From Lingula anatina (Eukaryota; Animalia; Brachiopoda), in NCBI GenBank assembly GCA_051362555.1, contig CM120646.1, positions 124,001-188,000 on the forward strand: DNA of 64,000 nt. Reading direction: 5' to 3'. The notes beneath the pieces were generated by a model. That model had not been told where the DNA came from, searched no databases, and saw only the letters and a program-made list of their open reading frames with translations. Positions 4,899 through 60,350 of this stretch are shown here, piece after piece (position 1 is the stretch's first letter; each line of letters starts with the position of its first letter). The translations under genes and the position numbers were made by a program.

Positions 4899-5913
4899 TG
4901 ACTGGTCAGTAATTAAGAACTAAACCATGAAATTAAATCTTAAGTGGTAAAATAAAAAGCAAACCTTTCATGGAAAGTTCCATGGCACTAGATTGTAGTA
5001 CTTGTTGTTATTATTTAACAGGTATTAGAACAGTACTGACAACTGTTCAGGTGAGGGAGGTCTGTTTGAATTCAATATTAGTTTTTTCCCCCCCAAAATG
5101 TTGCTGTTACTTTATCAGAACAGATTAGAAAATTTGCACTCATGTTTTTTTTTAATGCAATATCATTATCTGGTAACAATACAATGTGTAATTTCAGATT
5201 ATCAAATTGGATAAGAAAAAAATCCCTAACATACTGAACCAGCTAATGGATAAGTCAACTAGTGTACTAGTCTATATAGTTATTAATATTGTAAGTGTGG
5301 AGAAAAAGGGGATTAAAAAATTACCCACTAAACATGGAGCATTTGTTACCACCCTGTATATATAAACTACAGTACAGTGTTGCTTTGGTTAATGATTTTG
5401 TAATTTTCATGCTCTATTTCAGTGTTGCTAACTGTCAGCTCCAGTGACAGTACCGTGAGTGTCTGGCACTGTGCAGAAGTAATAGTCAACGGTATTGGAC
5501 AGTGTGCAGGAGCAATTACCATAGGAAGAATGTGGCCAGACCAGTGAATGAGTCACAGTATTGATGGTGGAATTGATGTCTGAGCAAGCTTGTTGCTGTT
5601 GGCTGGAAAGTAAAGCAACCAGACGACAGGGATAGTTTACAAAATGGGTAGGTAACACCAAGTAGACATTGGTTTGATGACCAAGCCAAACTAATGTTAC
5701 CTGTTTTCTTATTTATTTGTTTGTTTATTTGTGTGATTATTTCAAGACAGCAAGCAGATAAAATGCAGCTCTATTGAACCAGCAATACAGGATACGGTAT
5801 GATAAGTACATTCTTCTGATGGAAGAGAGAAAAATGGTTTTGATGGAAAGATCAATACATAGAGAACCACCAGCAGTAAGATTTAATAATAATGGAATTA
5901 TTACACACTCAAT

Positions 5914-6230
5914 GGGAGCATTCACATCGAGAAGAGCCGATGTCTAGTAAGGCCGAGACCTAAATATGACGGACCTACATTAAAGGGAAACCCCTTAATC
6001 CATTAATAGTCTCTCCGCCTCTCACACGCCTCCCCACATGTCGTCCCTGCAGGTGCACGGTACCTAATTAAATCTCAGCTCAATTCAACCAGTCGAGGAA
6101 CAACGGGTGGGGAGCCGTGTGAGAGGGAGAGAGACCACTACAGGATTAAAAAGTCTTCCTTTCATGTAGGTCCACCATATTTAGGTCGCGCCCTTATTAG
6201 ACCCTGGCTCTTCTTGATGTGAATGCTCCC
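5914..6230. mobile_element. MITE with long TIRs (GGGAGCATTCACATC...), 3-bp TSD AAT; PIF/Harbinger-like
   Basis: 5914 gggagcattcacatcgagaagagcc is the inverse of ggctcttcttgatgtgaatgctccc ending 6230. Imperfect symmetry continues inward and aat flanks both ends. Confidence 0.7.
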
Positions 6231-6471
6231 AATGTCCCTAGCCCTGCCTGGCCTTGGATCTGTAGATCTGTGTGTGACACAGGCAGGTGCTGGAGCCGTG
6301 GGGAATAGATGACTTTTCATTATTAGGATCAAATTAGTCTAGAACACAGCCTAGATTTAAATGTTGCCTTTTTATTTCAGAAACAAGAATGGTTTTTTAC
6401 TCTATATAGTGTGTTGTAAGGACAATAATATTATGTCAGCATCTAATTGCTGTTATTAATACAAAGTTTAT

Positions 6472-7311
6472 GCCAGTGGCAACTACAGAATAAGTATATC
6501 TGTGTATTTGATACCTATTCCATCCAGTGGTAACTACAGAATAAGTTTATCTTTGTATTTGATACCTATTCCAGGCAGTGGCAACTACAGAATAAGTTTA
6601 TCTTTGTATTTGATACCTATTCCAGCCAGTGGCAACTACAGAATAAGTTTATCTTTGTATTTGATACCTATTCCAGCCAGTGGCAACTACAGAATAAGTT
6701 TATCTTTGTATTTGATACCTATTCCAGCCAGTGGCAACTACAGAATAAGTTTATCTTTGTATTTGATACCTATTCCTGCCAGTGGCAACTACAGAATAAG
6801 TTTATCTTTGTATTTGATACCTATTCCAGCCAGTGGCAACTACAGAATAAGTTTATCTTTGTATTTGATACCTATTCCAGCCAGTGGCAACTACAGAATA
6901 AGTTTATCTTTGTATTTGATACCTATTCCAGCCAGTGGCAACTACAGAATAAGTTTATCTTTGTATTTGATACCTATTCCAGCCAGTGGCAACTACAGAA
7001 TAAGTTTATCTTTGTATTTGATACCTATTCCAGCCAGTGGCAACTACAGAATAAGTTTATCTGTTTATTTGATACCTATTCCAGCCAGTGGCAACTACAG
7101 AATAAGTTTATCTGTGTATTTGATACCTATTCCAGCCAGTGGCAACTACAGAATAAGTTTATCTGTTTATTTGATACCTATTCCAGCCAGTGGCAACTAC
7201 AGAATAAGTTTATCTTTGTATTTGATACCTATTCCAGCCAGTGGCAACTACAGAATAAGTTTATCTGTGTATTTGATACCTATTTCCAGCCAGTGGTAAC
7301 TACAGAATAAG
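6472..7311 (+). repeat. 51-bp minisatellite, ~16.5 copies, each containing the 3' splice site of the first coding TBC1D5 exon
   Basis: Unit ...tttgtatttgatacctattccAG|ccagtggcaactacagaataag. The last copy (tatttccag, exon start 7290) runs into unique exon sequence. Confidence 0.9.
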
Positions 7312-7366
7312 ACAGAAAGAGAAAACCAAGGCCGGGTCTGAGGTGTTTCCAACCAAGGAGGATATC

Positions 7367-10300
7367 ATGTCCACTTTGGAGCAGTTTGGAGAAAAGAATA
7401 ACTCAGGTAAATCAAGCATTTTGACATTATTGATATTATATTATGTATAGATTACTATTGGTTGTTGAACCAGATGATTGCTATTAGAAAAGTTGAGGTA
7501 GACCAGCTTTCACTCCAAACTTCTATCTGTGAACCATTCTTTCCAGTAACACTGAGCTGATAACAACATATACACAAGTGTCCTTCCATTTATTTTGAAG
7601 ATGTCTTCTGACTGACTTAGTCTATTCAAACAAACATATGAAATGAAGTTAATAAAATCAATTCTCTTCATAGATGATAATTATTTAGCACAAGCTAAAA
7701 ATAGTCTTTATACTATAAGGTTTTAATATGAAGAGTATTTTCAGCTTGTGCTAAATAATTACCATCTATGATCCAAATACCAACCTTAGGAACATTTTTG
7801 CTCATTAATTCTGTTGTATTGTTCACATTTAGCTTACTTAATGAGAACCTCCATATAGACAGCTCTATAACAGTATTTGTGTCATTATTAACTTCCACTT
7901 CATCCTATATCTCAGAGTGTGCCCCGCCCACTGATAGCACCCCCAGTACCCCAGGGAGACTAGACTACAGCGGCTATGAGCAGATAGACACACCCAATAC
8001 TGGCTCTAGTATTACTAATTCCTACTGGTAAGCTATAGTCCTAAACCAGCTATGAACAGATAGGCACACCCAATACCGGCTCTAGTATCACTAATTCCTA
8101 CTGGTAAGTATAGCCCTAAACCAGCTATGAACAGATAGACACAACCAATACTGGCTCTAGTATTACTAATTCCTACTGGTAGGTATAGCCCTAAACCAGC
8201 TATGAACAGATAGACACACCCAATACCGGCTCTAGTATCACTAATTCCTACTGGTAAGTATAGTCCTAAACCAGCTATGAACAGATAGACATACCAAATA
8301 CCGGCTCTAGTATCACTAATTCCTACTGGTAGGTATAGCCCTAAACCAGCTATGAACAGATAGACACACCCAATACCGGCTCTAGTATCACTAATTCCTA
8401 CTGGTAAGTATAGTCCTAAACCAGCTATGAACAGATAGACACACCCAATACCGGCTCTAGTATCACTAATTCCTACTGGTAGGTATAGCCCTAAACCAGC
8501 TATGAACAGATAGACACACCCAATACTGGCTCTAGTATCACTAATTCCTACTGGTAGGTATAGCCCTAAACCAGCTATGAACAGATAGACACAACCAATA
8601 CTGGCTCTAGTATCACTAATTCCTACTGGTAGGTATAGCCCTTAACCAGCTATGAACAGATAGACACACCTAATACTGGCTCTAGTATCACTAATTCCTA
8701 CTGGTAGGTATAGCCCTAAACCAGAAGCCTGCTAGTCTGTGGAAATACCATTTGCTTGACCAGAATAAATACTGACACTGAGAAGTTTTCTACACATTAA
8801 TAGAATCCATCTGTAATCATAATGTAGGTAGCATTGACAGAGTTATTATCTAAAATTAGGTCACCTTGACCCATATTTCATGTAGAAGTAGGTCATACTG
8901 ACCCAAATGACCCAATGTTTATTTGACCCTGTTGACCCATTTATGCTTTGTTTCCAGTTCTGAGTGGGAGAGGCTATTTGAACGTCCAGATTACATGAAG
9001 ATAGTCAGGCGGCTGGGCGTGGAGGGGCACCTGAGGAGTACACGATTCAGGAGTGTCATTTGGAAGGTATATGCAGCCCCCCCTCCCCCCCCCCCCCCGA
9101 CACGTAGTCTTCCCTCAAACTCTTCCTTCCCCAAAATGAAAGTAAAAGAGACTGAAAATATTTAATGCAGAACTTGCTTTTGATTTTTGACAAATATTTT
9201 GTTTAGACAACAAATTTTTTGTTGTATATAAATATTATTCTCAACAGTGTAATTCATATTATGTTTGCACAAGGAAATGTCCTTGATAGTGCATCAATTT
9301 TTAGAAGAACTGGTACGTGACAGAGGTGAATATTATACATCTTAACATAATGAAAATTTTGCATTACATTTCATTGTATCCATGTCTCACCTTGTAGCTG
9401 TACCTGGAGGTACTTCCAGAAGACCAGGATCAGTGGATAGAGAAGACAAGACAGAAGAGACAGGAGTATGAGGACCTTAAAGACAAGGTGAGATGGGAGA
9501 ATTTAAAGATTAGGGTGTATAAAATCATATCATAAATCTGTCGTCTGAAACAGACTCCTGTAGAAAAGCTATAGTTCATTTTGTTATATTTACAAACATT
9601 TATCTAAAATTATTTACTAGAATACAAATGCTTTATGATAAATTACCCATTAGACATCTCTGATCAGAATATCTTGTGTTCATGTTTCATAAGTTGATCA
9701 CCAACCCGCGGCAAGGTCAAGCAGAGGACCTGAGTGTGAACAACCCACTGTCACAGGCTGAGGAGGTATGTAGGTTCAAGGTCGTAGGTCTTAGTCACTG
9801 TGACCTGAGTGTGAACAACCCGCTGTCACAGGCTGAGGAGGTATGTAGGTTCAAGGTCCTAGGTCTTAGTCACTGTGACCTGAGTGTGAACAACCCACTG
9901 TCACAGGCTGAGGAGGTACAGGCCTAACCAACTACCAGAATCGGCACCTAAGGATCCTGAATAAACCGGTATATCGGACCACACTACCCGTTTTCAAGGT
10001 GTGAGTCAGATCGCATTTCGGAGTATCATACCCCAGAACAAATTTTGTAGGACGACTGCGGGCTCATCCACGCTCGGCTGAACAACGTACCTTAAACTGT
10101 ACTCTTACTTTGGAGTACTCTATTTCATTGTCTCTATGGGGGTATATGGGGACTTTACGACATTCGGTTTGAATGTTTTAACCACTTTTGATAGGGCTTT
10201 TTTGCATTGTATTAGATTAATGTGGCAGTCTAAGGTTCATCTAGGTGGCTTTCAAATTTATGCACCCGGTTTTAAAATCATATAGCGATTAAATACGACA

Positions 10301-13300
10301 ATCGTTTACTATCCAATCAAGGTGACAGCCGAGCGTAGGCTCATCCTGTCGGTGTTCTGACTGATACTCCGAAATGCGATCTGACACACACCTTGAAAAC
10401 GGGTAGTGTGGTCCGATATACCGGTTAATTCATGATCCTTAGGTGCCGAGTCTGGTAGTTGGTTAGGCCTGAGGTATGTAGGTTCAAGGTCGTAGGTCTT
10501 AGTCACTGTGACTTGAGTGTGAACAACCCGCTGTCACAGGCTGAGGAGGTATGTAGGTTCAAGGTCCTAGGTCTTAGTCACTGTGACCTGAGTGTGAACA
10601 ACCCACTGTCACAGGCTGAGGAGGTATGTAGGTTCAAGGTCCTAGGTCTTAGTCACTGTGACCTGAGTGTGAACAACCCACTGTCACAGGCTGAGGAGGT
10701 ATGTAGGTTCAAGGTCCTAGGTCTTAGTCACTGTGACCTGAGTGTGAACAACCCACTGTCACAGGTAGAGGAGGTATGTAGGTTCAAGGTCGTAGGTCTT
10801 AGTCACTGTGACCTGAGTGTGAACAACCCACTGTCACAGGTAGAGGAGGTATGTAGGTTCAAGGTCCTTGGTCTTAGTCACTGTGACCTGAGTTTGAACA
10901 ACCCACTGTCACAGGCTGAGGAGGTATGTAGGTTCAAGGTCCTAGGTCGTAAGCACTTGGATGTTAAAAGCCAGCTTAGTGTAACAGGTCTAATATGGAA
11001 AGTGTGTTTTCAGATTATTAAAGAGGTATAATATTGAAGTCTCATAAAAAATCAGCATAGAAACTGTTTCAGTACAATTGTTGTTAACAAAAGTGTTAAA
11101 AAAAGATTTAAATTTTTAAAACGTCTTGGTAAGATAACTTTATTTAATGATTGAAGGATGAAATGAGATTTGTTTTTACATTGCAGAGTCCATGGAACCA
11201 ATTTTTTCTGGACAACGAACTGAGACTGACGATCAAACAAGATGTTATTAGAACGTAAGTTGTATTTCTGGATTATGGAAGGAATGTATATCTTTTATTG
11301 GACGTAACTTTTGTGTAAAATTTCTTGACTTTTTATCAGTGATGTTTTTTTTTTCATTGGGGTTTATTTTGGGTTGATAGGATGTGCCTGCAAAATGATT
11401 TCTCAGAGATTTTAATGCATTCATTTTAGGACACAGCAGTCGTGTATTGCCAGTTGGTGGCCATATTGTGGTCTGAAAGACATTCTCTCTTAATTTAAGT
11501 AATAGCTGCAGTATGGGATTCCCCAGCAAGGAGCATTTCTATTTAACTGATGTCTGGATTATCTTATCATTGCAGCTACCCAAGAATAGAATTTTTCCAC
11601 TCCAACAAAGTCAGGAACATGATGGTGGACGGGTTGTTTATATATGCCAAGATCAAGCCAGATGTGTCTTATAGACAGGTTATTCTCTATTGTCATGTGT
11701 ATTAGTCCTCTGGCTGTACAGACTGAACTAGTCCAGCTTCTCAACAACCTTCTTGAAACAACAGTCTATTTGGTGAACAGTAATGTCTCTGGTTCATGCT
11801 AGCAGTTCATAAGCTCACTGCACTTCTGGGATTTCAAATTTAATTTACCAGTTTGTTTAGTCTTATTTTGTCCGTGTCTAAGCATTCCTTTGAGAAGCTG
11901 GGTTATTTCAGGTTTGACAGATGTCGTTATTGTTAGATGCTGCTGTCACTTGGCAGATATCTCTCAGTTTCTACTTCATTCAGCATGATGCATGTTAGAG
12001 ATATGTTGTAATGTGCCATATTATTATAATATCTTCTCCCTCTCTGTTTTTATTAGATCTGATTTCGTTTCAGACTCAAGTTGTTGGTATTAATTTTATG
12101 ATTTATTTTTTCAGTTCCACTTGGGACTATCCTTTCGAAGTGCTTTCTGTTATGTGTTCAAGTCTTTGTGTATATGTTATAGAACCCTTAGTTTGTTGCA
12201 TGTCTTCATTACTGTATGGATAGGCTCTTGACAAGTGTTTGTGGTAGTCTTTGTCCACCAGTGTAGTACAGTGTAGCTTCCAGCAGTGAAGGGGAGGTTT
12301 AAATAGATGATTCCATTCTAAAACTATGTAATAATTGTAACATTCTAAAACATAGAACATTATATGCATTTTTATTTGAATTATTGATCTATCATTTGTT
12401 TTAGAACCCCATGTGTGTCTGTGTATAATTTTATTCTTGTGTTTCATAGATGTATGCTTTAACTTCACCTGTCACTTTGTATGAAAAGAGGACCTAAATT
12501 CATCAAAATTTTGCACTGCAGTTTATTTCAGTTGTTTCATTGGATTTCCTTTCTCCCTTATTTATATTATACAAGGTCCATTCACACTAGGTCACTTAAG
12601 ACCGAGTCTTAGAATAACTTGCCCAGTCTACTAGTAACTGAGTGAGTTGTCTTTGTACCTCAATGTGGATAACAGGGAGAGCCCACTCTACCTCTGACAT
12701 GAAGACCCTGGGTTGCTCAAGCCAGTTGTCTGATGTAACATAGTTACATTACCAATCCATATTTGGCCTTGTCTGAATGGACCTGTAGATTCATTTGTTG
12801 TTGTTGTCTGCAGTGGTATTTTCATTATTTTAGTTTTCCTGAGCTGGAATTTTTCCAGCATGACAAGCACGGTGTTCAACCTATGATGGTCAAGATTTTG
12901 TTTTGTTTTGCCCGTGCCACAGACTCTAAATACAAGCAGGTTTGTGTTTCAGTTCTATTGGATAACAACAGTAAGTCAGTAACTTGCAATTAAAGTGAGC
13001 CCTTAGGTAAGCACAATAGGTCATTATAGACAATTGGCCCTCATTTGTTAAACTTTCATTTTACCATTTTAAGCTCTAAAATTTCCAATGAATTCTGTGT
13101 AAGAAATGACTTTTGGAAGCTGTGCCTGTAGCAGTGGGTGGGATGTCATGCCATTTTATCTGAGACTGGGTTCCCTTATCTAGATCAATCTAATGGGATC
13201 GATTCATCTCCAAGGGTTTTCTTGCTAAATTGCTTTTAGCTTAAGCGGCTTAGATGTCTGGCATGCCTACAGAAGCTGGTAAATGATAATTAATCCCCCC

Positions 13301-16300
13301 CCCCCCCCCCCCCCGCAGCTTCAGTAGACGTGACAGACATCTAAGCTGCTTAAGTTGATCGCAATTTATCTAGAATCTCCAGTTAGTAGGATAGGGTCCA
13401 GGTATGGTCCCTTAATCTGGACTTAAAGCAATTGAGCGGTGATAGTTGCCTACATTGATTTTTATCTCCATCTGTAAGATCTATATTTATCATGGGTGGT
13501 TATTGTGTTACGTTATAGAAATAAGGAGGATTTCATGAGAGCAGAAAGAAATTTTGAAGACAGCATAAAAGTCAGGCTCTTAACTAGTCTGTGATTTCCT
13601 CTTTGTTCTAGTTTCATACAAACTGTGTTAGAGCAGCACTTGTGCTTAGTTTCTATGTAAAAACCTGACCAGTGCCATTTTGTCTCTACTTTATACTGAA
13701 ATAAAGTGTGTGTCTTAAATATTTTAAAATGATAGTTATCATAATGATATTTGCTTAAAATCTAAAAAAAAAAAGAAACCTTCAGTATCAAAACATAGGA
13801 TTTATATGGAAACAAAATGGCACTGATTTTCTTCATGTTGTGTCCCTGTCTGCTTGCTTTCATCAGCTTTCCTTATTATCTTGATTTGTATTTACTTTAT
13901 TTATTATCAACATCTAGATATTTAACTATTATAACTATTGTTAATAGCATTTACAAGTTATCCACATAATTAAGAAGCATCAAACATGACAGAATATAGG
14001 GTTTAGATTTTCAGAGGACACCTCAGAATCTTATAGTTTTCACATTCTCTGGGACTTTATACATAGAATGTCAAAAGATGATACTTTGGTTATAATTACT
14101 GCTTAGAGGAGCATTTATAAATTTTGACAAACAGTTGGGAGACAAATATGAACACAACTTATTTTTGCCTAATTAATCATGAACTATCTGAACTGTTGAA
14201 ATTTAACAGAAGGAAAAAATAGACAGTCATGGTTAGTTTGCCTCCCATGTTCATACAAGGCATCTCAACAATCCAGCCACTTATCTGTGAATGTTATTTC
14301 AGGGAATGCATGAACTTTTGGCACCTCTGATATTTGTGCTCCACTGCGATCACCAGGCTTTCCTTCACGCCACTGAGATGGAATCAGTAGAGTAAGTAGA
14401 CACTAGTATTATCAAACAAATAGAGCTCAGTACTTCCTTCATGTCAGGGAGATGGAATCAGTAGAGTAAGTAGACACTAGTATTATCAAACATATAGAGC
14501 TCAGCAATTTCTTCATGTCACCAAGATGGAATCAGTAGAGTAAGTAGACATTATTATCAAACAAATAGAGCTCAGCACTTTCTTCATGTCACCAAGATGG
14601 AATCAGTAGAGTAAGTAGACACTAGTATTATCAAACAAATAGAGCTCAGTGCTTCCTTCATGTCAGGGAGATGATGTCAATAGAGTAAGTAGACACTAGT
14701 ATTATCAAACAAATAGAGCTCAGTACTTCCTTCATGTCAGGGAGATGAAGTCAGTAGAGTAAGTAGACACAAGGATTAAACAAGCAAACAGAGAATAGTT
14801 CCCAGTGAGAGTAAATAAGACCTCTTGAAGAATGGTAAGCCTGTAATTGGACAGTTCCAGTGCCCTGTTCTGTACAGTATGTGTGTGTGTGTATTTAATG
14901 GTGCTATGACCATTCACTATTGTGGTTGATTTGGCATGATTTCTGATATTTTAGCCAGTTTTTAAGATTTTAATTTATGAGATATTTTCAGAACCAACTC
15001 TTTTTAATTTTAAAAAATGGTTATGATTATTTTATGTAATTGTTTTGCAACTATCTTTTTATTGCAGTCAGTTTCCTGATGATCAAAGGTTTGAGATTTT
15101 TTTTTTTTATTCTGTTAAATGACCACATCAGCACCCGCATCTCCTCATTGCCTGTATACTAACAGCAGTTAACATGTCCCCTTGAAGATTTTTTTTAAAC
15201 ATTTCTCTTTCAACAGAATTAAGTTTGCCATGTGTTGTGCTGCAATGCTTATTCTGTACTAACCATTTCTTAGTTTTCATTAAGAAGAAGACTTGATATT
15301 ATTTATAATACCTCGATTATAATTAATCATTGAAGCCTTGGGTTGAATTTTGATTAATTGCTTTTTGCCCTGAAATTTGTTTTTGTTGTTCTCTTCTACT
15401 AACCAGTTTCTTTGTTTTCTTAAGTGGATATTGTTTATGAACTATTTCAACATTAATATCTAATATCCCACTCCTGTCGTTTCAGTCCACACTGTAACAT
15501 TATAGCAATCGCTCCTGGTCTTAATAAGCCTTTATCAGTTCATCACCTTTTTTACTTTGTTATAAAAAATGCTAGCACAGAGGAAAAATGGAATGAATTT
15601 ATATGTATAATTTATCCCTGAATTTTGCATATTCATCTATATGTTAAAGTACATCAGTCAAGTGACATGGTTAATCTAGTTCACATCTTAGAGTGGCTTG
15701 CTATACTGACCACCTGTGCATAATGGTTTCAGGGGCATGCAGGCTTGTATTGCTGCATGCTGCCATCTATAATATTGTCACTAAAAAAAAGGCCTGCTCA
15801 GACTAGAACTTTTACGATGACAATAATATCTATGAGCCTTTCCGCTTGGCCTCAGAATTTGCTTATCTGAGTCATTTTGGTTAACTAATTAACAGAAGTT
15901 TGCCTGTTTTTCACAGTCTCAATTCAGTCTTGTCTGAACAGAACAAAAGAGCAGTGTAAAACATTGTCATGTAATGTGTTACCATGGTGCAGTATGGCAC
16001 AGGACTCACAGCCATGTTCATGGAATATCTCATCTCACTACTAAAGTTTCAGAAAGAAATTTAAACTACACTTTATAATAACATTTGGCCATAATTTAAC
16101 ATAAACAAAATCTACTTTCTCTTTCAGAGACATAGTGAAAGAGTTACTCGACCCACGCTACATTGAACATGATGCATAGTAAGTAAATATAAATATATGT
16201 AAACCTCCCTAGCTCTGTATTTTACCTTTAAGTTATGTCTGTTGTAATACTGATATGCTGGAAAGAGCCTACAGATCTGACTATATATGTATATATATAT

Positions 16301-18504
16301 GAATTGAAATTGTGCCTTTGAAATTCTTTCATGAACATTGTTATCTTGTAAAAATCAAAGTCTTGTGAAAAGGTTATTTTTATAAAGTTTTTGTTTATGG
16401 AAGTGTCTTTTATTTATTTATAAATTGTCTTCCAGCACAATGTTCTGTCAGATTATGGAGACTGTGGAACCATGGTATATTTATTTATTTATTTGTATAT
16501 TATTTATTCATTTATTTATTTATTTATTTATCTTCCAGCACAATGTTCTGTCAGATAATGGAGTATTCATTCATTTATTTATTTATCTTCTAGCACAATG
16601 TTCTGTCAGATAATGGAGACTGTGGAACCATGGTATATTTCCAAAGAAATTTACCCAAACAAGGTATAAAAACATTTTCCTGCTTTTATATGCAAAGTAG
16701 GCTTGCTTTAGTCTGGTTAAAGTAGGCTCAAATCCTTATGAACTTCTCCTTAACCTCATCCTGGTGTGACATTTTAACCGAATGCTCAACTGATCTTTAT
16801 ACAATGAACAAAAATGTGAGATATGTTACTGTTTTAAACCATTTTTATGGGTTTAGTTAACTATTTTGGTCTGGGCAAATAACATAAATAATAGATTTTG
16901 GCTAAAAATGGATAATTAGGTGAAAAAGGCATTTCATCGTGGGATGAGGCTTGAATACGATATATCGCAGATACTTTTCAGTTAGGTAAGTTTAATAAAC
17001 ATTACCAAATACTTCATTCTTTTTCAAAACCTATAATTTCCTTGTTCTTCACATTTTGGCAAATCACAAAAAGACCCCTGAAAATGAACTCAACTCACTT
17101 TTAAACCATTCTTTGGGGAAATATGATTTTATCATTTTTTTCTGACTTGAAAAATTTGGAATAATAACCATATCACATCTTAATTCATTCCCAGAAGCAA
17201 GGAATCATTCATGCCCAGCCATTTGTGAAGCTACAGGATCTGCCGTCTAACGTCATCGTGAATAAACTGATCCGTATCCAGGACTACATCCTGAAGAAGT
17301 ATGACATTGAGTTGCACATGCATCTGGAGAGACTGGAGATTGCGCCGCAGATCTACGGAATGTAAGTGAGAGAGAGAGAGAGAGAGAGAGGGGTAAGGGA
17401 AGAGAGAGAGGGGGATAGAGATATCATCACAGTTCAATAGAATTTATTTAAATGATATAACCTTTTGTTTTCAGACGCTGGGTTCGACTTTTATTTGGCA
17501 GGGAGTTCCCGATGCAGGATCTGCTGGTATTATGGGATGCAATATTTGCTGATGGGATCTCCTTTGACCTGGTGGACTATGTGTTTGTGTCCATGTTACT
17601 GTACATCAGAGACTTGTGTGAGTACATATTTGGTTGCTGACCTATTCTTCAGAATGCACATGAAAAAAGCAAGCTGTTTAAACAGAAGTCCTCCTTCATG
17701 GTATATACTGTTTTTATGTTTTTAATGGAAGCTAATGTGTGTTCATTTTTAATTCCACAAGTTGAGAACCTTATTTTCAGATCATTGTAGTTTACATCAG
17801 TAAGATTTCTCTCTTTATATTCTTTGTAGTGTTAACAGGAGACTATGTAACCTGCCTGACCAGTCTAATGTTATATTTCTCTCTTTATATTGTATAGTGT
17901 TAACAGGAGACTATGTAACCTGCCTGACCAGTCTAATGTTATATTTCTCTCTTTATATTGTATAGTGTTAACAGGAGACTATGTAACCTGCCTGACCAGT
18001 CTAATGTTATATTTCTCTCTTTATATTGTATAGTGTTAACAGGAGACTATGTAACCTGCCTGACCAGTCTAATGTTATATTTCTCTCTTTATATTGTATA
18101 GTGTTAACAGGAGACTATGTAACCTGCCTGACCAGTCTAATGTTATATTTCTCTCTTTATATTGTATAGTGTTAACAGGAGACTATGTAACCTGCCTGAC
18201 CAGTCTAATGTTATATTTCTCTCTTTATATTGTATAGTGTTAACAGGAGACTATGTAACCTGCCTGACCAGTCTAATGAAGTACCCACCTGTAGGTGACA
18301 TCAACTACATGATAGAAAAGGCTTTGTACCTGAGGGAACCAAATGTAAGTGTGAGGGGGCGGCGGGGGGGGGGGGGGGGATATCTATCTGTTTTCACTGC
18401 TGCTTTTCTCCCTGTCTACATATCTTTGTGTATCCAATCTGCCCATATGTGTCTTAACATCTTTGAAAATTTATATGCGTGCTGAAACATTGACAAATTG
18501 AATT

Positions 18505-18572
<68 letters not shown>

Positions 18573-21516
18573 TTAAATTCAAATTAATTCCACCACCTTG
18601 TCATCATTTGTTGTTATTGTCTACATACAGGACAGACCTAAACCTCCAAACTACACATACCAAATACCCAATGCAGCCAAGAAGAGGAGAGATCAAAACA
18701 AAAGTAAGTGTACGAAATTCAGATTAAAGCATTTCTCTTTAAAAGATTTAAGCTACATTGTTTAGTATACATGCATGTTATAATTTTATTAAATAATGTG
18801 TAAATAAAAACTGTTGTCTATTATTCCTTTTCACATAGGCAATATTTGAAAGATGCATTGAGATCTTTAAAAAAAATTAGAAGAGATGAGAAAAACTTGG
18901 CGTCAGTAACATATTTTGCTATCAGCATTCAAGCAAACAGTGAAAGTTCTATAGTAAAATAAAGCTTTACATTTGTCTGATATTTTAGTAACAGCCAGTA
19001 ATTTAGCTGAGAAGATTAAGTCGAGCTTTAACGCTTCAAGTTTTGCTACGCTGACTAGACGAGGAGGAAGCAATCGACCACAGACTATTTCAACGAATCA
19101 AAAGATCTCCAAGTCATCTAGTGAACCAATGAACCTTGTGACAGACAAATCACCAGGTATAGATGGCAGCTGTTGCTTGTCATGGATTGACACTAGATGG
19201 CAGCATTGTATTATATTATATTATAGGTGGAACCACTGTTCCCAGTAGCTGCCATATCATACCCAGATCCATTTCTAATCTAGCATACATTATGAATTAA
19301 ATATTTGCACTTAAAAGCATTTTCTTAATAGCTAACATTTATAACCATAACACTTAAAAATTGATATTTCTTCATGAACAATTAAGTATTATGAACATTG
19401 AACCAATAAGATTTGCAATAAGTGTAACAGTTGTGGTTTGTTTGTGACAGCCATATTGACATTGTATAAATCACACCACTACAGATCAACCTGATAAACA
19501 CGTCTCCCCTTTCCTCACAGATAAAGAGAAGGCTCCCAGTGTACCGGGCAGTAAGAAGACAGGCTCCACTGCCAGTCTATCCAAGATAGAACAGATGACC
19601 ACTGGCCTGGACTCTACCAGTGTGGACAACACCCCCTCAGAGAGTAGCAGTAACAGCATGGCACGACTGGAGACAACGTCCAGCGCTGGTCAGCTGCCCA
19701 GTGGAGCAGTTAGTGGGGGAAGAGTGGAGCAGTTTGAGGCAGTCAACAGCAAGGGTCAGCCTATCAGACCACCGGGTACCCCTCCAACCAGACATAAGGG
19801 GAAGAAGTTTGCACCATCTGTAATGGTACGTTACAGCACAGGGCAAGAAGGGGGGGGGGGGGATAATCATACTAGCCTAACTTTCTATTTCATCAGAATG
19901 ATTATTGTATGACGAAATCAGTTGTGAATTAATTGTGCAAAGAAGTAGTGAGGTATTAATAAGAAAAATGAAACTTTTCAAAAAATCACTGAGGTTTTCA
20001 GTTTATTTAGTTAACTTGCTGTCTATATATCTCTGTCCTAGGAGTCTGAGCTGAGTCATAAACTGGCGTATGCCCAGGGCCAAGTCAATGATATGGAAGC
20101 TATGGCAAGATACTGTGCCAGTAAGATGGATATACACATAGGTAAGTGATGTATACATATGGAAGTCAGACACTGTGCCAGTAAGATGGATATACACATA
20201 GGTAAGTGATGTATACATATGGAAGTCAGATACTGTGCCAGTAAGATGGATATACACATAGGTAAGTGATGTATACATATGGAAGTCAGACACTGTGCCA
20301 GTAAGATGGATATACACATAGGTAAGTGATGTATACATATGGAAGTCAGATACTGTGCCAGTAAGATGGATATACACATAGGTAAGTGATGTATACATAT
20401 GGAAGTCAGATACTGTGCCAGTAAGATGGATATACACATAGGTAAGTGATGTATACATATGGAAGTCAGATACTGTGCCAGTAAGATGGATATACACATA
20501 GGTAAGTGATGTATACATATGGAAGTCAGATACTGTGCCAGTAAGATGGATATACACATAGGTAGGGAGTCCTTGATGTTTATGTTTAGTTTGTTTTATA
20601 TGTGTGTGTGCGTGTGTGTATGTGTGTGTCTTGATGAGTGAAGAAGTCTGTTGATTACCTAATCCAATGTTTTAGTCATATTTTGATCTTTTATACAGTT
20701 TTATTGATGGGGGACATGTTCTATCTTACAGAAAAGCTTCAGTCAGAGCTGCTACATCAGAACGTGGAGAATGAAGATGAAATACTCCTGTCTTTAGCTG
20801 GACTAAAGCAGGTACCTGACATCCTCATGATGGTTTAGTGTTTGTCTTAGGTGCACTCTTTTCTCAGGTGCACTGCATTTAATTGGTAACTCCAGACTGT
20901 TATAATTAATTGGTAACTCCCCACTCTTTTATCAGTCATTAAATTGGTAACTCCTGACTGAAATATCAAATAGTTTATAGTAACATTCACTGTGATGTCT
21001 TGTTTGAAGGTGCGTGACATTCTGAAGGGAACTCTCAAATTCCAAAGAGGTCTGGAGTCAGAAGAGTTTTCTATTAGAGAAAACCATTACCAAGAGGTAC
21101 ATCAGCAAGCTGAGTCATCATTGGACAGAAAGAAGTCAGATGACCAATTTTCAACATCTTCATCCAATCAAAATGGGACATTCAATATGCCTGCTGTACA
21201 GCAATTGTATGCTGGCAGCAGTGAGGATGGTTTTAGTGACAGTCCTTCCCCAGTTTTGGAGAACAAAACATTCTTGAGTGATAACCCTACTAACACACAT
21301 GGGCGATATGTTATTGAACCTTCCCCAAATTTTAGAGCTGACATTGTTATGGCTGGAAGTCCACAAACTAAGAAACGCTACAGTCACGATTTTAGCCGGC
21401 GCAGACACGGCAGCGGGAGAAGAAGCCACTCTGACTCAGAAGACGCTGCTGGTTTATTAGAAAGCTCAATGGAAGTACACAATCCTACTGGGAAGCTGAG
21501 TTTTGATTGGTCCTGA
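7367..21516 (+). CDS. TBC1D5: TBC1 domain family member 5 (Rab7 GAP, retromer-associated), multi-exon
   Basis: Exons: 7367-7406, 7916-8027, 8958-9066, 9398-9487, 9694-9765, 11187-11254, [11576-11678 or 12834-12939], 14303-14391, (15068-15088 optional), 16128-16178, 16594-16663, 17195-17361, 17475-17617, 18238-18344, 18631-18703, 18989-19156, 19521-19825, 20042-20141, 20732-20811, 21010-21516. All are GT-AG and phase-consistent, ~817 aa. Motifs match TBC1D5: EWERLF, LRSTRFRSVIWK, NNPLSQ, IKQDVIRT (Arg finger), YKQGMHELLAPLIFVLHCDHQAFLHA, PQIYGIRWVRLLFGREF, LAGLKQVRDILKGTLKF. The start codon is inferred. Confidence 0.93.
7969..8724 (+). repeat. 75-bp minisatellite, 10 copies of exon 3' end plus 5' splice site
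   Basis: tcctactg|GTaag/GTagg donors at 8028, 8104, 8179, 8254, 8329, 8404, 8479, 8554, 8629, 8704. Confidence 0.9.
9727..10948 (+). repeat. 75-bp minisatellite, ~9 copies of exon 3' end (DLSVNNPLSQAEE) plus donor, interrupted by a MITE
   Basis: gaggag|GTatgt donors at 9766, 9841, 9916/10474 (split by the MITE), 10549, 10624, 10699, 10774, 10849, 10924. Confidence 0.9.
9919..10471. mobile_element. ~550-bp MITE with ~110-bp TIRs and 5-bp TSD AGGTA
   Basis: CAGGCCTAACCAACTACCAG ... CTGGTAGTTGGTTAGGCCTG, with aggta at 9914-9918 and 10472-10476. Close second copy at 31509-32059. Confidence 0.9.
11576..11678 (+). CDS. TBC1D5: TBC1D5 Gln-finger exon, variant A (YPRIEFFHSNKVRNMMVDGLFIYAKIKPDVSYRQ)
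   Basis: cattgcAG|c...tatagacag|GTtatt; 103 nt, phase 2 to 0, open frame, ends in YxQ. Confidence 0.75.
12834..12939 (+). CDS. TBC1D5: TBC1D5 Gln-finger exon, variant B (FPELEFFQHDKHGVQPMMVKILFCFARATDSKYKQ)
   Basis: attttAG|t...tacaagcag|GTttgt; 106 nt, phase 2 to 0, open frame, ends in YxQ. Confidence 0.8.
13165..13402. mobile_element. Palindromic MITE-like element; related copy at ~51180-51370 and a more distant one at ~37722-37932
   Basis: gctaaattgc...ttaagcggcttagatgtctg is mirrored by cagacatctaagctgcttaag...gcaattta. The same arms recur at 51200-51360. Confidence 0.6.
14358..14770 (+). repeat. ~74-bp minisatellite, 6 copies of exon 3' end plus donor
   Basis: (g)taga|GTaagt donors at 14392, 14466, 14540, 14611, 14685, 14759. 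Confidence 0.85.
15068..15088 (+). CDS. TBC1D5: Candidate 21-nt frame-preserving TBC1D5 microexon (DQFPDDQR when spliced)
   Basis: ctatctttttattgcAG|tcagtttcctgatgatcaaag|GTttga; phase 2 to 2 matches the flanking exons, no stop. Confidence 0.45.
16426..16640 (+). repeat. Triplicated 3' splice site plus exon start separated by (ATTT)n
   Basis: AG|cacaatgttctgtcagat at 16436, 16539, 16594; only the last continues as the full exon. Confidence 0.8.
17805..18278 (+). repeat. 68-bp minisatellite, 7 copies of polypyrimidine tract, acceptor and exon start
   Basis: tAG|tgttaacaggagac acceptors ending at 17829, 17897, 17965, 18033, 18101, 18169, 18237. Confidence 0.9.
18508..18571. repeat. (CT)n microsatellite
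   Basis: Direct reading. Confidence 0.9.
20108..20564 (+). repeat. 60-bp minisatellite, 8 copies of exon 3' end plus donor
   Basis: cacatag|GTaagt every 60 bp from 20142 to 20502; the last copy is GTaggg at 20562. Confidence 0.9.
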
Positions 21517-24690: not shown

Positions 24691-27600
24691 TCACAGTTCT
24701 GTATGTAATCCACGGCTTTGGTTCTCCTCGTCATACTTCACCACCCACTTGGACGGCTGTTCACACGTCAGCTGACCATCTGGGCAAAACCTGCGATATG
24801 TCACGTCCTGGGAAAACCCAAGAATCTCGCGCTCCTCTTGGATACGGAATGAGAAAGTGGACACATAGGAGCCAATGAAAACCCTGCAATGAACAAGCAG
24901 ATTCCACACTTTTCTAAAATATGTTGATGGAATGGCATAACCAGTCAAAAACAAAAGGCTAAGATTTACTATGATTAGAATATGTAGTAATATTTTAAAA
25001 AGTGAACCATAACTTCAGAGAATTTTTATTAAATAGCTTGTATACCACTGTGCAAAAACATGTAAAGATTCCATCACAGCTGATTGATTATAGGATTCCT
25101 GGCCAAATATGTAAAATTTTCTACATCACTATCAATGCATTACGACACTTACCTTGCGTGTGCACATATCCACTGATCTATAATAGCAATACCGCCATCT
25201 TTAAAGGACTCCAGCACCTCTTTGGTAGGAGTATATTTGACTACTTTGTAGCCCTGTAGGTACCCCTTCAACTCCTCAAACTCTGCAAATTAAAAAAAAA
25301 AAAAACATAAACGTAGTGCAACTCATTACCTCCTCAGACAAGTTTAATACATGAACCATGGAGTCCTTGTAATGACCAGACAAAATTTTCTGAACTTAGA
25401 CTTGTGAAGATTCTTTTGTCTATAGCTATTTTTTTTTTTTTTTTTTAGTTTGATCTTACCATCCAATATTTCATCTGCTTGCAGTCAGATTTCATCAGGG
25501 AATGAGGTTGTGACAGGTATGACAACCTGTCACCCCCTCTGGTGTGCTATTTGGTCAGATCCCCCCAACTCCTAGTTTCTCACGTATAGTGTAGAACAGT
25601 TTCATTAGCTATGTTATTATAATAGACTTGTGAAGATTCTTTTGTCTATAGCTATTTTTTTTTTAGCACATATATTTTAGTGGCACATTTCAGCACTAGG
25701 GAAGATGACATTGAATTTCAAGTTTAGCTGTGACAAAGTTAACAGTGTCTAGGTACATATATAAATGGTTCCACAACATTATTTGGTACTTCTTTGGCAT
25801 CACTTAGTGTACAATGGGGCTACTTTACTCTAAAAAACACAAAAAAGGAGCCTCACAAGACAATAACTTTAGATCTTCACCAAAATTCAAAAGAAGTATT
25901 TCTGATAGTACCGGTACTACACAACCATTTTATGACAGACATGATTCAACATTTGAAGAAGAAAGTCTGACAAAGGTAGACACTGAAATCCTCATTTTTA
26001 AGGATGAACATGATGTTCCAAGTAGAAGAGGCCTAACTGACAAAAATATTCCGGAAAAAGTTGTTCACAGAAGCCAAGAAAGCATTTCCAGGTCTTTGTC
26101 TTGGCCATCCATTGCACAAATCATAAATGGACCAGAAGTTCAATTTACCAACCAAGATGACTGCAGCACAACAACATGGAGTAGACTGCGTCTGTCTGAA
26201 CCACTAGACAACAGCAGCAGATCAGGCAGCTATGCTAGTACAGCAAGTCAGACGTTTTTAAGTTTTCCACCTCTAGAAAATGTCAGAGTCAGCAGAGCAT
26301 ACAGCGACATTGGGCTTCTGATACACCAGACATCCTTGGATGAGGAACAAAACTTCCCAATATTTGCAACTAGAGGTAAGTTTCTTTTAATCATTTGGAA
26401 ATAAAAATATGTACACTTCTTTTAATTTTTAAAAATGATTCTATCAGCCATTTTTAAAAGCAATGACTTATAAATCCTCTTCTCCAAAGCAAGGATATAT
26501 GTACTAAATTAATGATAATTGTATAAATGCAAATCATAATTGCATATGTTGTTATAGATGAAGTATTTCATATTCCATACTTATTCTTTAACAATACCCA
26601 GATATGAAAAAAAAAAAAATGAAGTCATAAAAATTGAAACAGTACTGTAGTTGCTACAGAAGGAAACTTTTTTTCATGGCTGTTATATTAACTGAATACT
26701 TTTCATTAATTGTTTTCCCAGATAATGAGAGGCAGGAACCTTGTGTGACCCACAACTACATCACCGTGATAAACCATTCTGGATCCCAGACCAGTTTCCA
26801 AGTAGGAGATGGTGGCAACACAGTGTATTTTGGCAGGAATGAAACTATAAATGAACTGTTATAAAAGCAAACATGAAGCTTATTAGTGTGGTGGAAAAGA
26901 GGGATTCACGTGCAAACAATTGTAGCGGTGCAATTTCTCCGCAATCCAGAATAATGACGCTGTGATTTCTTTTTCATAAATTTAATAAGATAATGAAATA
27001 TTTACGCTACTAAGTGCACCAGCTGCTAATCGTCTGCTGCGCCGCCATGCTCCTTTTTCCGCTGACGCTACCCCGGTTAATGCACACCGGCACTATATTT
27101 ACCCCGTTACATGATGTATCATACCTAAATTTTCTTAACCCTTGATGTCTAAATTTTTTTATTCTTAGGTGTTCCCAGAGCAAAAAATGCCCCATGGGGA
27201 TTAAATTTAATGATATATAACACCCTGTGGCTCAAATAAGTGCATTTGAAATAATAATATAACTTTGTATTTATTGGGTGTGTGTAAAAGTTGCCATCTA
27301 CTTCTAGTCTATGGCAAAAACAATCATGATGCTTATATTTTGTATTTATTGGGTGTGTGTAAAAGTTGCCATCTAGTCTATGGCAAAAACAACCATGATG
27401 CTTATATTTTGTATTTATTGGGTGTGTGTAAAAGTTGCCATCTAGTCTATGGCAAAAACAACCATGATGCATATATTTTGTATTTATTGGGTGTGTCTAA
27501 AAGTTGCCATCCAGTCTATGGCAAAAACAACCATGATGCTTATATTTTGTATTTATTGTGTGTGTGTAAAAGTTGCCATCCAGTCTATGGCAAAAACAAT

Positions 27601-30600
27601 CATGATGCTTATATTTTGTATTTATTGGGTGTGTGTAAAAGTTGCCATCTAGTCTATGGCAAAAACAACCATGATGCTTATATTTTGTATTTATTGGGTG
27701 TGTCTAAAAGTTGCCATCCAGTCTATGGCAAAAACAACCATGATGCTTATATTTTGTATTAATTGTGTGTGTGTAAAAGTTGCCATCCAGTCTATGGCAA
27801 AAACAATCATGATGCTTATATTTTGTATTTATTGGGTGTGTGTAAAAGTTGCCATCCAGTCTATGACAAAAAACAACCATGATGCTTATATTTTGTATTT
27901 ATTGGGTGTGTGTAAAAGTTGCCATCTAGTCTATGGCAAAAACAACCATGATGCTTATATTTTGTATTTATTGTGTGTGTGTAAAAGTTGCCATCCAGTC
28001 TATGGCAAAAACAAACATGATGCTTATATTTTGTATTTATTGGGTGTGTGTAAAAGTTGCCATCCAGTCTATGGCAAAAACAACCATGATCAATGCTTAT
28101 ATTTTGTATTGATTGTGTGTGTGCAAAAGTTGCCATCCAGTCTATTGCAAAAACAAACATGATGCTTATATTTTGTATTTCAACGTTGATCCAGCCACGT
28201 TGACTCAATGTTGTATTTTGGTCAATGCCACAACCTTGCAGTTATGGATTGTTATTTAAAATATTAATTATTGAAAACGTGATACTTTGTTGATCAATAC
28301 TGTAACTAAATTTATCAAAATAATAACAAAATGGTTTTAAAGTAAAAGTGACAGTTGTTTTGTGTCTTTAGTTAACTAGTGAATTTTCTTAACTTGTTAT
28401 TCAGAAATACATTCCAACTAGAGGATCAGAGAGGCGATACCGCCTCCGAATATTGTACCACCAGCTGGAGTAAGCGCATTGGTATAGGCCCCCCCCCACA
28501 AAAAAAGGGACACCACCACCAGTCTTGTGCTTGACAAGCTGTAACAAGGCAGCAAAGCTGTCAAATGTACAGACAAAAAGCAGGAAATAACTATGCACAA
28601 AATAGGCTACTGTCAATTCTGATGCAAAAGTACATTATGTTAAACTGTAAATTCAACATCAAATTTTAATTATGCTCAACAGAAAATACCAATGAAAGTA
28701 AAATGTGTAACAAGCATAAGGCTTCAGGCCCATGAGAGTTCAAGTTCACACTTTGAAAATGTATAACTTCCAGAAAAAGAAGCCAATTAGACTGCTTTTC
28801 CAACTCAGGCTGCATGCCGATTTTCGAACTTGACCTCCGTTTTAGTAAGATCGATTACTCCTGAGAGTTTCACGACAACAGGCCTATCGGTTTTCCTTGA
28901 AATGTGTTTACAGTGTTGCATATATGTTGAAAAGTGAAAGAAAAAAGCATAACTTCTACAATAATGGCCCGATCATCCTGATTTTCGAACTTGACCTGCA
29001 TTTTATGAATATTCATCAGCTCTTTAAATATAAAGCCCAAAAGTAAAACTGCCTTCCACTTATCGTGTTTACAATGAAAGTGCAAGGTGCCGGCAACGGC
29101 GATGACGGCGACGACAGACGCAGGTGATGGCAATATGTACAGACACATCTGTACATATTTACTGTACTGTTTGAGAACAGTAAGTGACATGGTTTTTCTT
29201 AAATGGTCATCATGGGAGCAGTGCCCAAAATAGGTTTTTTTCAAATTTTGACGCAATATTACATAATGTTTAACAGCATAATGACCTTCAATTTTTAAGA
29301 ATACAATATTAGTATCATGGATATTCAGAAAATGTGACTAGCAAAGGTCTTCAGGCCCATGGAACTTCAAAGTCACAACTTGAAAATGCCAAAATGTAAA
29401 CAAGACAGCACTGTTCTGAAATGTTTTTTTTCCATTTTTAACAATTTTTAACATAAAACAAAATTAACAGTTTACTGCCATTTTTATATTATCAACTAAG
29501 AAAATTGATGAGATGGGAAAAATATCAATATAACAGTGTTAAATGTCCAATTTCTTCCATTCTGAGATTCTGAACATAGTGAATGATTGAATCTGACAAA
29601 CTGCAATGATGAGTTTATTTCCATTTTTGACACTTTATTACACAATACACGATAAAAAGTTTACCATCATTTTTACAAAATCAACTAACAATGTTGTAAA
29701 GATGCAGGAAATGTCAAACAAACACTTTTACGTATCTTATTAGTTTAATAATGAGACTGTTAACATGCCTAAGAATTGAATCTGAGGAAATGTGAAAAAT
29801 ATGCTGAAAAGTGAAAAAACCAGCATAACTTCTACAATAATGGCCCGATCATGCTGATTTTCGAACTTGACCTGCATTTTATGAATATTCATCAGCTCTG
29901 TAAATATAAAGCCAAAAAGTAAAACTGCCTTCCACTTATCGTGTTTACAAGGAAAGTGCACGGCGCCGGCATCGGCGACGGCGACGACAGACGCAGGTGA
30001 TGGCAATATGTACAGACACATCTGTGTCTGTACATAAAAATGCAATCAACAAGAATTCTCAAAATATGCAAAAAAATATATAACTGAAATGGTACAATCA
30101 AAGTTCAGTTCATCGTAAGGTAGGTCAAAGGTCAATTTCAAGGTCACAGTAAATTTCCAGTTTATGACTTCCTATTTAAGTTCAATAGTAACTATGGACC
30201 TATCTCAGCCAGTTTTGGAGATAAAAGGGAACCAAAATTTGTAAAGTTCAATTCATGATGAAAAGGTCAATTTCAAGGTCACACTTAGATTGCCAGTATA
30301 AGACTTCCTATTCAAATTCAACAGTAACTATGGGCATATCTTTGCCAGTTTTGGAGATAAAAGGGAACCAAAATTTGCAAAGTTCAGTTCATGATGAAAA
30401 ATAGGTCAAAGGTCAATTTTAAGGTCACAGTAAATTGCCAGTATATGACTTCCTATTCAAGTTCAATAGTAACTATGAACCTATCTGTGCTAGATTTGGA
30501 GATAAAAGGGAACAAAATTTGTAAAGTTCAATTCATGATGAAAAGTAGGTCAAAGGTCAATTTTAAGGTCACAGTAAACTGCCTCTAATGACTACATATT

Positions 30601-30810: not shown

Positions 30811-32642
30811 CCAATAAAGCTGCCATTCAAACTTTAAATCTTGCTGTATTAACATGATATGAATAACCCAATGTGTTTGAGGATAATAAGGCACTGTTAT
30901 TCATCTATAGCATTAATGTTAGCATTACACATTTTTTTTTTCTTTTGTAAACTTATTTGTTATATTAAACAACATTTACCTGCATAATTATCACCAATTC
31001 CTAATTATGTGACACAGTTAAGAGAGCTTAACCTATAGGACTTGAATGGGAAATCTCAACGTGTGTTTTATGTAATCTTATTTAATGGGCACTTGAAAAT
31101 TAATTAGGCAAGTGATTTTATATCTCTGAATTTAGCTAGCGATTATCCCAAGGGACAATTACCACCATCCATAAACAGTAGCCCCATATAGCACTCTATA
31201 GAGCTGCATTGCTTCCAAAACAGAAAACAATCACACTGATATCCAACACAAGCTACACTTCAGTCCTATGAAACTTTTTAGTAAGTTAGAATATCATAAG
31301 TAAAATGGTCCCGGCAGCGATGTCCAAAACAGGTTTTTTTCATCTTTTATGCAATTTAACATAATGCTTAACAGCACAATGGCCATCAATTTTTAATAAT
31401 AAAGTAAATGTACCATAGATATTCAAAAAATATGACAAGCAATGGTATTCAAGCCAATGGAAGTTCAAAGACTAAGTCACACCTTGAAAATGTCCATATG
31501 TGAAAATTCAGGCCTACCCAACTACCAGACTCGGCACCTAAGGATCCTGAATTAACCGGTATATGGGACCACAATACCCATTTTCAAGGTGTGTGTCAGA
31601 TAGCATTTCGGAGTATCATATCCCAGAACAAATTTTGTAGCATGACTGCGGGCTCATCCACGCTCGGCTGAACAACCTTAAACTGTACTCTTACTTTAGA
31701 GTACTCTATTTTATTGTCTCTATGGGGATATATGGGGACTTTACGACATTCGGTTTGAATGTTTTAATCACTTTTGATAGGGCTTTTTTGCATTGTATTA
31801 GATTAATGTGGCAGTCTAAGGTTCATCTAGGTGGCTTTCAAATTTATGCACCCGGTTTTAAAATCATATAGCGATTTTACGACAATCGTTTACTATCCAA
31901 TCAAGGTGACAGTTGAGCATGCCAGGGCTCATCCTGTCGGTGTTCTGGCTGATACTCCGAAATGCGATCTGACACACGCCTTGAAAACGGGTAGTGTAGT
32001 CCGATATACCGGTTAATTCAGGATCCTTAGGTGCCGAGTCTGGTAGTTGGGTAGGCCTGAAATTCTAATTGTAACAAAAAACTATATAATTTCCAAGAAA
32101 GTTAACCGATATAACAAGATTTCCAAATGAAGCTATAATTTAGTCCTATGCTACATTTCTGTAAGTTTGAGAAGAGTAAGTGACTTGGTTTTCCTTTAAT
32201 GGTCACTATGGAGGCATTGTCTAAAATGGGGTTGTCTTCAATTTTGATGCAATATTACATAATGCTTAACAGCATAATGACCATCAATTTTTAATAAGAA
32301 AATAAAAGTATCATGGATATTCAGAAAATTTGACATGGAAAGGTCTTCAGGGCCATGGAAGTTCAGAGTCACAACTTCAAAATGCCAAAATGTACACAAG
32401 AGATAACTGTACTGAAATGAATTTCCTTTCCACTTTCAACACCTTTTTTTACATATATAAAAATAATCAATTTACTGTCGTTTTTAAATGATCAACTAAG
32501 AAAGTTAACGCTTGTGGTACAATAAACTGAATTGCTTGCAAGGTCAGCTAACACTAGGATGAATAAGTTGCTGTAAATATGATGGAGTAAACAGTTCTTG
32601 GTAACCTGTTATAGATAGACAGGTTGAGGTGACTGTGACCTT

Positions 32643-59781: not shown

Positions 59782-60350
59782 TATCAGTAATTTATAATAT
59801 GTTAATATAGTAGAAGTAGATGATAGTTCAGATAATTCACTTCATAAGTCTCTCACCATCAAACCATAATATAGATATAATATCAGTAATTAATAAAATG
59901 ATAATATAGTAGAAGTAGATGATAGTTCAGATACTTCACTTCATAAGTCTCTCACCATCAAACCATAATATAGATATAATATCAGTAATTAATAAAATGA
60001 TAATATAGTAGAAGTAGATGATAGTTCAGATAATTCACTTCATAAGTCTCTCACCATCAAACCATAATATAGATATAATATCAGTAATTAATAATATGAT
60101 AATATAGTAGAAGTAGATGATAGTTCAGATAATTCACTTCATAAGTCTCTCACCATCAAACCATAATATAGATATAATATCAGTAATTAATAATATGATA
60201 ATATAGTTGAAGTAGATGATAGTACAGATAATTCACTTCATAAGTCTCTCACCATCAAACCATAATATAGATATAATATCAGTAATTAATAATATGGTAA
60301 TATAGTAGAAGTAGATGATAGTTCAGATACTTCACTTCATTAGTCTCTCA
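59782..60350. repeat. 99-bp minisatellite, ~5.7 copies
   Basis: tcagtaa recurs at 59784, 59883, 59982, 60081, 60180, 60279. Confidence 0.9.

Follow-up and report, generated by a model that had tools for sequence, protein, structure and literature searches.

How can a gene carry some fifty extra splice sites next to its working ones and still encode an intact protein, and why do these sites gather at the edges of exons? The question is raised by a stretch of 64,000 nucleotides (nt) from the brachiopod Lingula anatina (GenBank assembly GCA_051362555.1, contig CM120646.1, positions 124,001 to 188,000 of the forward strand; the whole stretch is referred to here as the window), which contains a plus-strand trafficking gene, TBC1D5, at 5644..21516 with seven unrelated minisatellites, each lying across one splice junction. 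When eight single exons of the gene were tested, two gave a weak Pfam RabGAP-TBC match. Used as query in a homologue search, one exon retrieved 27 proteins; the best was TBC1D5-like isoform X2 of Lingula anatina (XP_013395365.1), 100% identical. Searches of PDB sequences by individual exons yielded no match, or TBC1D15/17 only. The exon model (ATG at 5644, stop at 21516) encodes 851 amino acids and equals XP_013395365.1 at 845 of 851 residues, in keeping with the untouched protein of a preliminary description of the window. The six residues that differ suggest that the window represents a haplotype other than the RefSeq one. The gene and its arrays, in which 'decoy' denotes every repeated splice site other than the real one, are laid out as follows (bp, base pairs).

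5644..21516, plus strand: TBC1D5 coding span; the ATG at 5644 is split by the first coding intron, and the product has 851 or 852 amino acids by exon choice.
6472..7311, plus strand: A1, a 51-bp acceptor array before exon 7290-7406, with 17 copies of the exon part, the real one among them; 16 decoys, 13 with AG.
7973..8724, plus strand: A2, a 75-bp donor array after exon 7916-8027, with 10 copies; nine decoy donors, all leading to a stop.
9727..10948, plus strand: A3, a 75-bp donor array after exon 9694-9765, with nine copies; eight decoy donors.
9919..10471, no strand assigned: a palindromic insertion of 553 bp, like a miniature inverted-repeat transposable element (MITE), within the third A3 donor and with a 5-bp target duplication.
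14360..14793, plus strand: A4, a 74-bp donor array after exon 14303-14391, with six copies; five decoy donors.
About 16375-16640, plus strand: A5, an irregular, TATT-rich acceptor duplication with 103- and 55-bp units before exon 16594-16663; three copies.
17805..18278, plus strand: A6, a 68-bp acceptor array before exon 18238-18344, with seven copies; six decoys.
20108..20564, plus strand: A7, a 60-bp donor array after exon 20042-20141, with eight copies; seven decoy donors, each giving an immediate stop.

In all seven arrays the unit joins part of an exon to the adjacent part of the intron, splice site included. Three are acceptor arrays (A1, A5 and A6) and four are donor arrays (A2, A3, A4 and A7), with 3 to 17 copies each. 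How well are the extra sites preserved? GT is intact in all 29 decoy donors and AG in 21 of the 24 decoy acceptors, or 50 of 53 together, which bears out the roughly 50 additional sites of the preliminary description. The exon parts of the decoys are 83-100% identical to the adjoining real exon (in A6 all six are identical to it), and the unit consensus sequences differ between arrays. A4 is the most diverged array (89% matches), and the decoy acceptors of A5 lie at 16436 and 16539. Within A1 the acceptor of the first copy is deleted and the real site has one additional T. The two most upstream A1 copies (6473 and 6524) are without an acceptor, one by deletion and the other by a change of AG to AT, and such losses are too few to infer selection against distal decoys. 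The count of seven junction arrays, also made in the preliminary description, is reproduced by Tandem Repeats Finder (TRF) and by copy-by-copy dissection, with the 75-bp blocks at 9727 and 10471 forming the single array A3, interrupted by the MITE. A second copy of this element at 31509-32059 shares 94% identity with it; the two are palindromic, 551-553 bp long, with terminal inverted repeats 96% alike over 100 nt and 5-bp target duplications, and the family may be hAT5-like.

The protein is intact when the model uses the first exon copy in donor arrays and the last in acceptor arrays. This strict polarity was observed correctly in the preliminary description, but it is no separate finding: head-to-tail copying over one splice site always leaves the full exon first or last, so the polarity is uninformative. 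As evidence of selection it was rejected as geometric.

Are the arrays present in DNA reads? Two short-read DNA runs were compared, X2 for the stretch 14700-17900 and X3 for 10800-14440, either of which may be the assembly's own source. In the short-read contigs the collapsed A6 unit has a depth of 552.9 against 93.7-100.7 for single copy (X2), and the collapsed A3 unit one of 765.4 against about 90 (X3). Because unit depth is about 6 and 8 times that of single-copy sequence, A6 and A3 are no assembly errors. The two ratios are near the window's copy counts of 7 and 9, although depth gives no exact copy number. The end bin of A4 (292.6 against 100.7 in X2) offers partial backing.

Which of the many sites are then used? 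RNA from five raw-read runs with the same species label (about 6-25% of each) was compared with the stretches 14700-17900 and 10800-14440, which contain the edges of A3-A6; A1, A2, A7 and the arrays as wholes lie outside them. Joints with fewer than three reads were not counted, read numbers are small and the RNA animals may have other copy numbers. On this basis RNA uses mostly the real sites at A3-A6. At A3, the real upstream exon is present in all of the 13+15 reads that are informative for the 5' side, and two X12 reads within the array body read through the donor. At A4, 19+28 reads exit the real donor 14391 into a 21-nt micro-exon, and 22+7 reads reach this micro-exon from the real exon:

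15068..15088, plus strand: alternative micro-exon of 21 nt, joined to the real A4 donor, seen in loose ends of RNA reads and present in two of four RefSeq isoforms.

At A5, 19 reads link 16178 to the last acceptor, 16594, and none was counted to the decoys, a null that is weaker for decoy 16539 because the simple repeat 16472-16540 was skipped in the read comparison. At A6, 55+12 reads run on as the real exon. No decoy-spliced joint was counted at the edges of A3-A6, and in the same two stretches no joint uses a repeat unit as a new exon or a new intron. None of the four RefSeq isoforms in the cluster (844-852 amino acids) is long enough for a unit insert. Some reads at A6 speak for a less clean picture. 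Seven X12 reads (four starts) cross from unit to unit against 55 real ones; they exceed the intron background of 14700-17900 (P(≥4) = 0.006, with about six copies collapsed) and fall within the X12 background of 10800-14440 (P = 0.35). Leaky use of A6 decoys may therefore amount to as much as about a tenth. X12 reads from the array body also seem to carry a unit sequence other than that of A6 in the window. The RNA check suggested in the preliminary description thus returns the real sites at A3-A6, with a possible leak at A6.

Does correct splicing depend on nonsense-mediated mRNA decay (NMD), as that description supposed? With the exception of the first two in A3, every decoy tested brings in a premature stop; for A1 the stop test covered 4 of the 13 intact acceptors, read from the true start, and all 16 A1 decoys shift the frame. 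If used, the two exceptions, 9840 and 9915, would add sequence that keeps the frame and contains no stop, yet every informative A3 read carries the real exon. A need for NMD as a safeguard is hence not supported here. Use of the real A3 donor despite stop-free decoys argues for positional choice of the splice site at A3, with NMD as at most a back-up. For intron 7 of human F7 (IVS7), positional choice among identical donors has been demonstrated experimentally, according to the passages of PMC1557585 drawn on here.

Why do the arrays lie at junctions at all? In the null model the seven unit lengths were placed at random in the array-collapsed gene, at intronic or single-junction positions only. 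The chance of spanning a junction is then 16-23% per unit, giving P(7 of 7) = 1.3e-5 and, at the same per-unit rate, P(7 of 13) = 0.007; both values are post hoc, as the window was chosen for its striking look. The junction bias is strong within TBC1D5 (post hoc p about 1e-5). Purging of exon-internal arrays by selection cannot explain it, because the null already excludes exon-internal units. With default TRF settings, all longer tandem arrays of TBC1D5 are at junctions, as the preliminary description stated; under lenient settings the statement no longer holds, with nine more weak non-junction repeats in the gene (66-82% match, 2-3.5 copies) and one weak repeat across the acceptor at 12833. 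Duplicated junctions number 7 of 41 in TBC1D5, where an ungapped junction scan caught five of the seven arrays; A1 and A2, which escaped it because the real site has a 1-nt insertion, were added from the dissection. The case has its weak side. The evidence comes from one gene, picked after the fact, and POFUT2, likewise a housekeeping gene and in the same window, has none of its 16 junctions duplicated. The absence of arrays from POFUT2 junctions, noted in the preliminary description, is thus correct as a count, but the difference from TBC1D5 is not significant (Fisher p = 0.085). The other minisatellites of the window (191, 27264, 32956, 44705, 44994 and 59782) are all more than 1 kb away from the nearest junction of TBC1D5 or POFUT2. 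A literature search on genome-wide junction bias of minisatellites, or on an allele-exchange model, returned nothing relevant.

What has happened to the arrays since they arose? Internal units are 96-100% alike, and the outer intron edges 48-95%. Differences between decoys and the exon are synonymous in 14 of 26 distinct cases against 23% expected (p = 6e-4), or in 11 of 23 (p = 0.007) when three lying in codons with a further change are dropped, A1 being excluded from both counts. Three of the eight RNA variants within exon parts are present in window decoys: 9747G in two of eight, 14374C in two of five and 16612T in the only one. At A2, the window exon reads GGC at a codon for which RefSeq has Ser (its codon being deduced from the protein), and AGC stands there in all nine decoys. 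The A6 decoys show no difference from the exon of the window itself, although in other animals this exon part has four segregating synonymous variants. Compared with the majority sequence of the arrays, the real exon part departs at 8 of 202 positions and the outer intron edge at 38 of 158. Introns, for their part, differ between animals, with indels and long loose ends in reads.

Taken together, this suggests that the arrays keep exchanging sequence with the live exon; the mixed sites and A6 point there. How much of the pattern demands such exchange? Several observations count against it. The synonymous skew and most shared alleles also fit plain change of the exon after founding, and only the mixed sites (A3 9747 and A2 copy 3) require later exchange. 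The remaining five of the eight RNA variants lie in A6 and have no counterpart among the window decoys, and no gradient of similarity toward the real exon was seen within the arrays. The asymmetry between exon and intron is in part a matter of ascertainment, the unit borders being defined by match; the 'intron' piece of A7 is partly diverged exon, and without A7 the counts are 8 of 168 against 23 of 129 (p = 4e-4), and with both A7 and the A6 filler removed p is 0.004. A2 shows the opposite contrast.

The gene also contains a pair of alternative exons, for which the arrays had been proposed as raw material:

11576..11678, plus strand: exon A, 103 nt long and included in RefSeq isoforms X2 and X4.
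12834..12939, plus strand: exon B, 106 nt, the spliced form in RNA runs X12, X13 and X16 (28 and 23 joint reads).

No spliced joint of exon A was counted in the same three runs, and the RefSeq isoforms include both exon forms. Either exon alone keeps the frame open, both or neither lead to stops, and the two have equal phase. The pair falls in the TBC catalytic domain. Both exon types are found in the TBC1D5 proteins of a nemertean (Lineus), gastropods and oyster, so the duplication is older than these lineages. The two are therefore ancient mutually exclusive exons, unrelated to the present arrays. A source in the arrays was rejected: the duplication is ancient and of the whole exon, with no array of whole-exon copies. 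Nothing relevant was found in a literature search on mutually exclusive exons of TBC1D5.

How, then, did this locus come about? Given what is directly visible (the anatomy, the intact protein, multi-copy DNA at A3 and A6 and real-site RNA at A3-A6), these are probably seven separate minisatellites of the type termed 'mirage' in amphioxus, founded locally, shaped by minisatellite turnover and tolerated since the exon-adjacent site is used. Each array likely started when 50-100 bp spanning a single splice site were duplicated locally in tandem, with only short matches visible by eye at the joints. Growth and homogenisation would have followed by slippage, unequal exchange or conversion, presumably near neutrality. 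Tolerance likely comes from splicing taking the site beside the full exon. As known from other splicing systems, the exon-proximal site wins by position through exon definition, or by oriented scanning as in human F7. Sequence may also pass between the arrays and the working exon, on one allele or across alleles. But what would place the duplications at exon edges? Exons could act as islands of identity between polymorphic homologues, and exchanges begun in an exon would fail at its edge and leave the edge duplicated. As the cause of the junction bias this is the likeliest reason on offer and the most speculative step, and we put it forward tentatively, as possible rather than probable. A wider conjecture is somewhat more doubtful still: in polymorphic marine invertebrates exon edges, as homology borders, would be birthplaces of minisatellites, and the arrays, in two-way exchange with the exon, would store exon alleles and feed changes back. 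If true, mirages would extend beyond amphioxus as a general mutational signature driven by heterozygosity.

Among the alternatives, damage coupled to transcription or splicing fares best, although we consider it unlikely. Pausing, R-loops or co-transcriptional assembly of the spliceosome in the germ line would produce breaks at splice sites, repaired as tandem duplications. This would suit the fact that all seven strong arrays span a splice site, that donors (four) and acceptors (three) are both affected, that A5 has two unit lengths at one acceptor, maybe from two events, and that the founding joints by eye have matches of about 1-5 nt. It does not itself predict that decoys share alleles with the exons of other animals, and the empty count of POFUT2 speaks against it as well. 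Is there any bias to explain? Random duplications with the exon-internal ones purged could make TBC1D5 an extreme draw from very many windows, and the post hoc choice, the six minisatellites far from mapped junctions, the nine weak repeats under lenient TRF and the non-significant comparison with POFUT2 all lean that way; against them stand the placement probability for seven of seven, which holds with exon-internal positions left out, and the like pattern published for several amphioxus genes (passages in PMC3087553 and PMC3902484), and this account is less likely again. A function for the decoys, either in adjusting how much TBC1D5 is made, by way of unproductive splicing and NMD, or in supplying new exon material, is highly improbable: the intact dinucleotides, the premature stops from all tested decoys but two and the array-crossing A6 reads in one run would fit it, but intact sites are expected given the high unit identity, decoy-spliced joints at A3-A6 and isoforms with room for a unit insert are both missing from the counts above, and exons A and B are older than the arrays. 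That the arrays are an assembly artefact, through collapsed or expanded reads or RNA-guided scaffolding, can practically be set aside, for although A1, A2 and A7 lie outside the read check and the DNA runs may include the assembly source, two DNA runs show the units at 6-8 times the single-copy depth, and the copies have private and shared mutations, one being interrupted by a MITE with its target duplication.

The rest of the window adds several separate observations. A candidate POFUT2 exon at 44333-44414 was discarded; the reading frame closes without it. The 16-kb last-but-one intron of POFUT2 hosts two related plus-strand segments with two-exon-like open reading frames (25940-26870 and 36000-36915), about 145 and 133 amino acids open and then a short second piece, with about 60% DNA identity over 554 columns. 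The repeats at 27264-28180 and 32956-33086 are built from one 69-bp unit, with 13 copies and, 4.8 kb off, two copies, away from mapped junctions. A two-copy duplication with 87-bp spacing at 46662-46804 ends about 25 nt from POFUT2 donor 46828 and does not span it. From about 48200 a third, plus-strand transcript-like region runs head to head with POFUT2; the 99-bp AT-rich array at 59782-60350 (5.7 copies) lies downstream of it, with a possible junction there. A very high-copy short repeat at 13200-13380 reaches a DNA depth above 100,000 (X3) and is covered by transcribed reads from both strands; by eye, related sequences lie near 37720 and 51190.

What do such arrays mean for the study of splicing and genome change? 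They are apparently harmless, and their value is as a test bed. Why minisatellites favour exon edges has been a question since the amphioxus reports, and this brachiopod, for which DNA and RNA data of several individuals are publicly available, is well suited to tests of it. A6, where acceptors of identical local sequence compete and the last is used, and A3, with decoy donors to which NMD is blind, are natural experiments on positional choice of splice sites in an invertebrate. Such arrays can also mislead gene annotation and short-read mapping.

How does the locus compare with known systems? Its structure is known already, as the mirage class of amphioxus, with human parallels. Canestro et al. 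are said to have described mirage minisatellites in amphioxus Adh3 in 2002. Somatic length instability was reported for Adh3, as cited in PMC3087553, which in the passages drawn on here also describes mirages of the globins BflGb6 and BflGb9 and calls the mechanism of origin unclear; PGBD5 and troponin C were added in PMC3902484. In these passages the amphioxus mirages resemble the TBC1D5 arrays in the tandem copies over an exon-intron boundary, at donors and acceptors, with mostly intact GT/AG and normal splicing, in the presence of several per gene, and in a homogenised interior with diverged edges; the idea that new introns or exons could come from them has already been put forward there. 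The 37-bp variable number of tandem repeats (VNTR) in intron 7 of human F7 (Borensztajn et al. 2006, PMC1557585, in part) is alike in that its first unit spans the exon-intron boundary. Its identical downstream pseudo-donors are functional but silent, and the most upstream donor is chosen even over stop-free pseudo-sites. F7 differs as one donor array in one gene, with no acceptor case or claim of junction bias in the passages concerned. Human genes in segmental duplications (De Grassi and Ciccarelli 2009, PMC2812944, in part) likewise have boundary minisatellites of variable copy number, which can create new introns and alternative transcripts, whereas no such product was seen in TBC1D5. No report of a brachiopod mirage was found in the literature searched, which left most subscription journals and supplements outside. 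Unlike in amphioxus, the TBC1D5 arrays are in a brachiopod (Lophotrochozoa), occupy 7 of the 41 junctions of one gene and reach 17 copies, and the synonymous skew and the sharing of alleles with the live exon are absent from the amphioxus passages. The locus adds the strong junction bias within TBC1D5, the synonymous skew of the decoy differences and some decoys that carry real-exon alleles of other animals.

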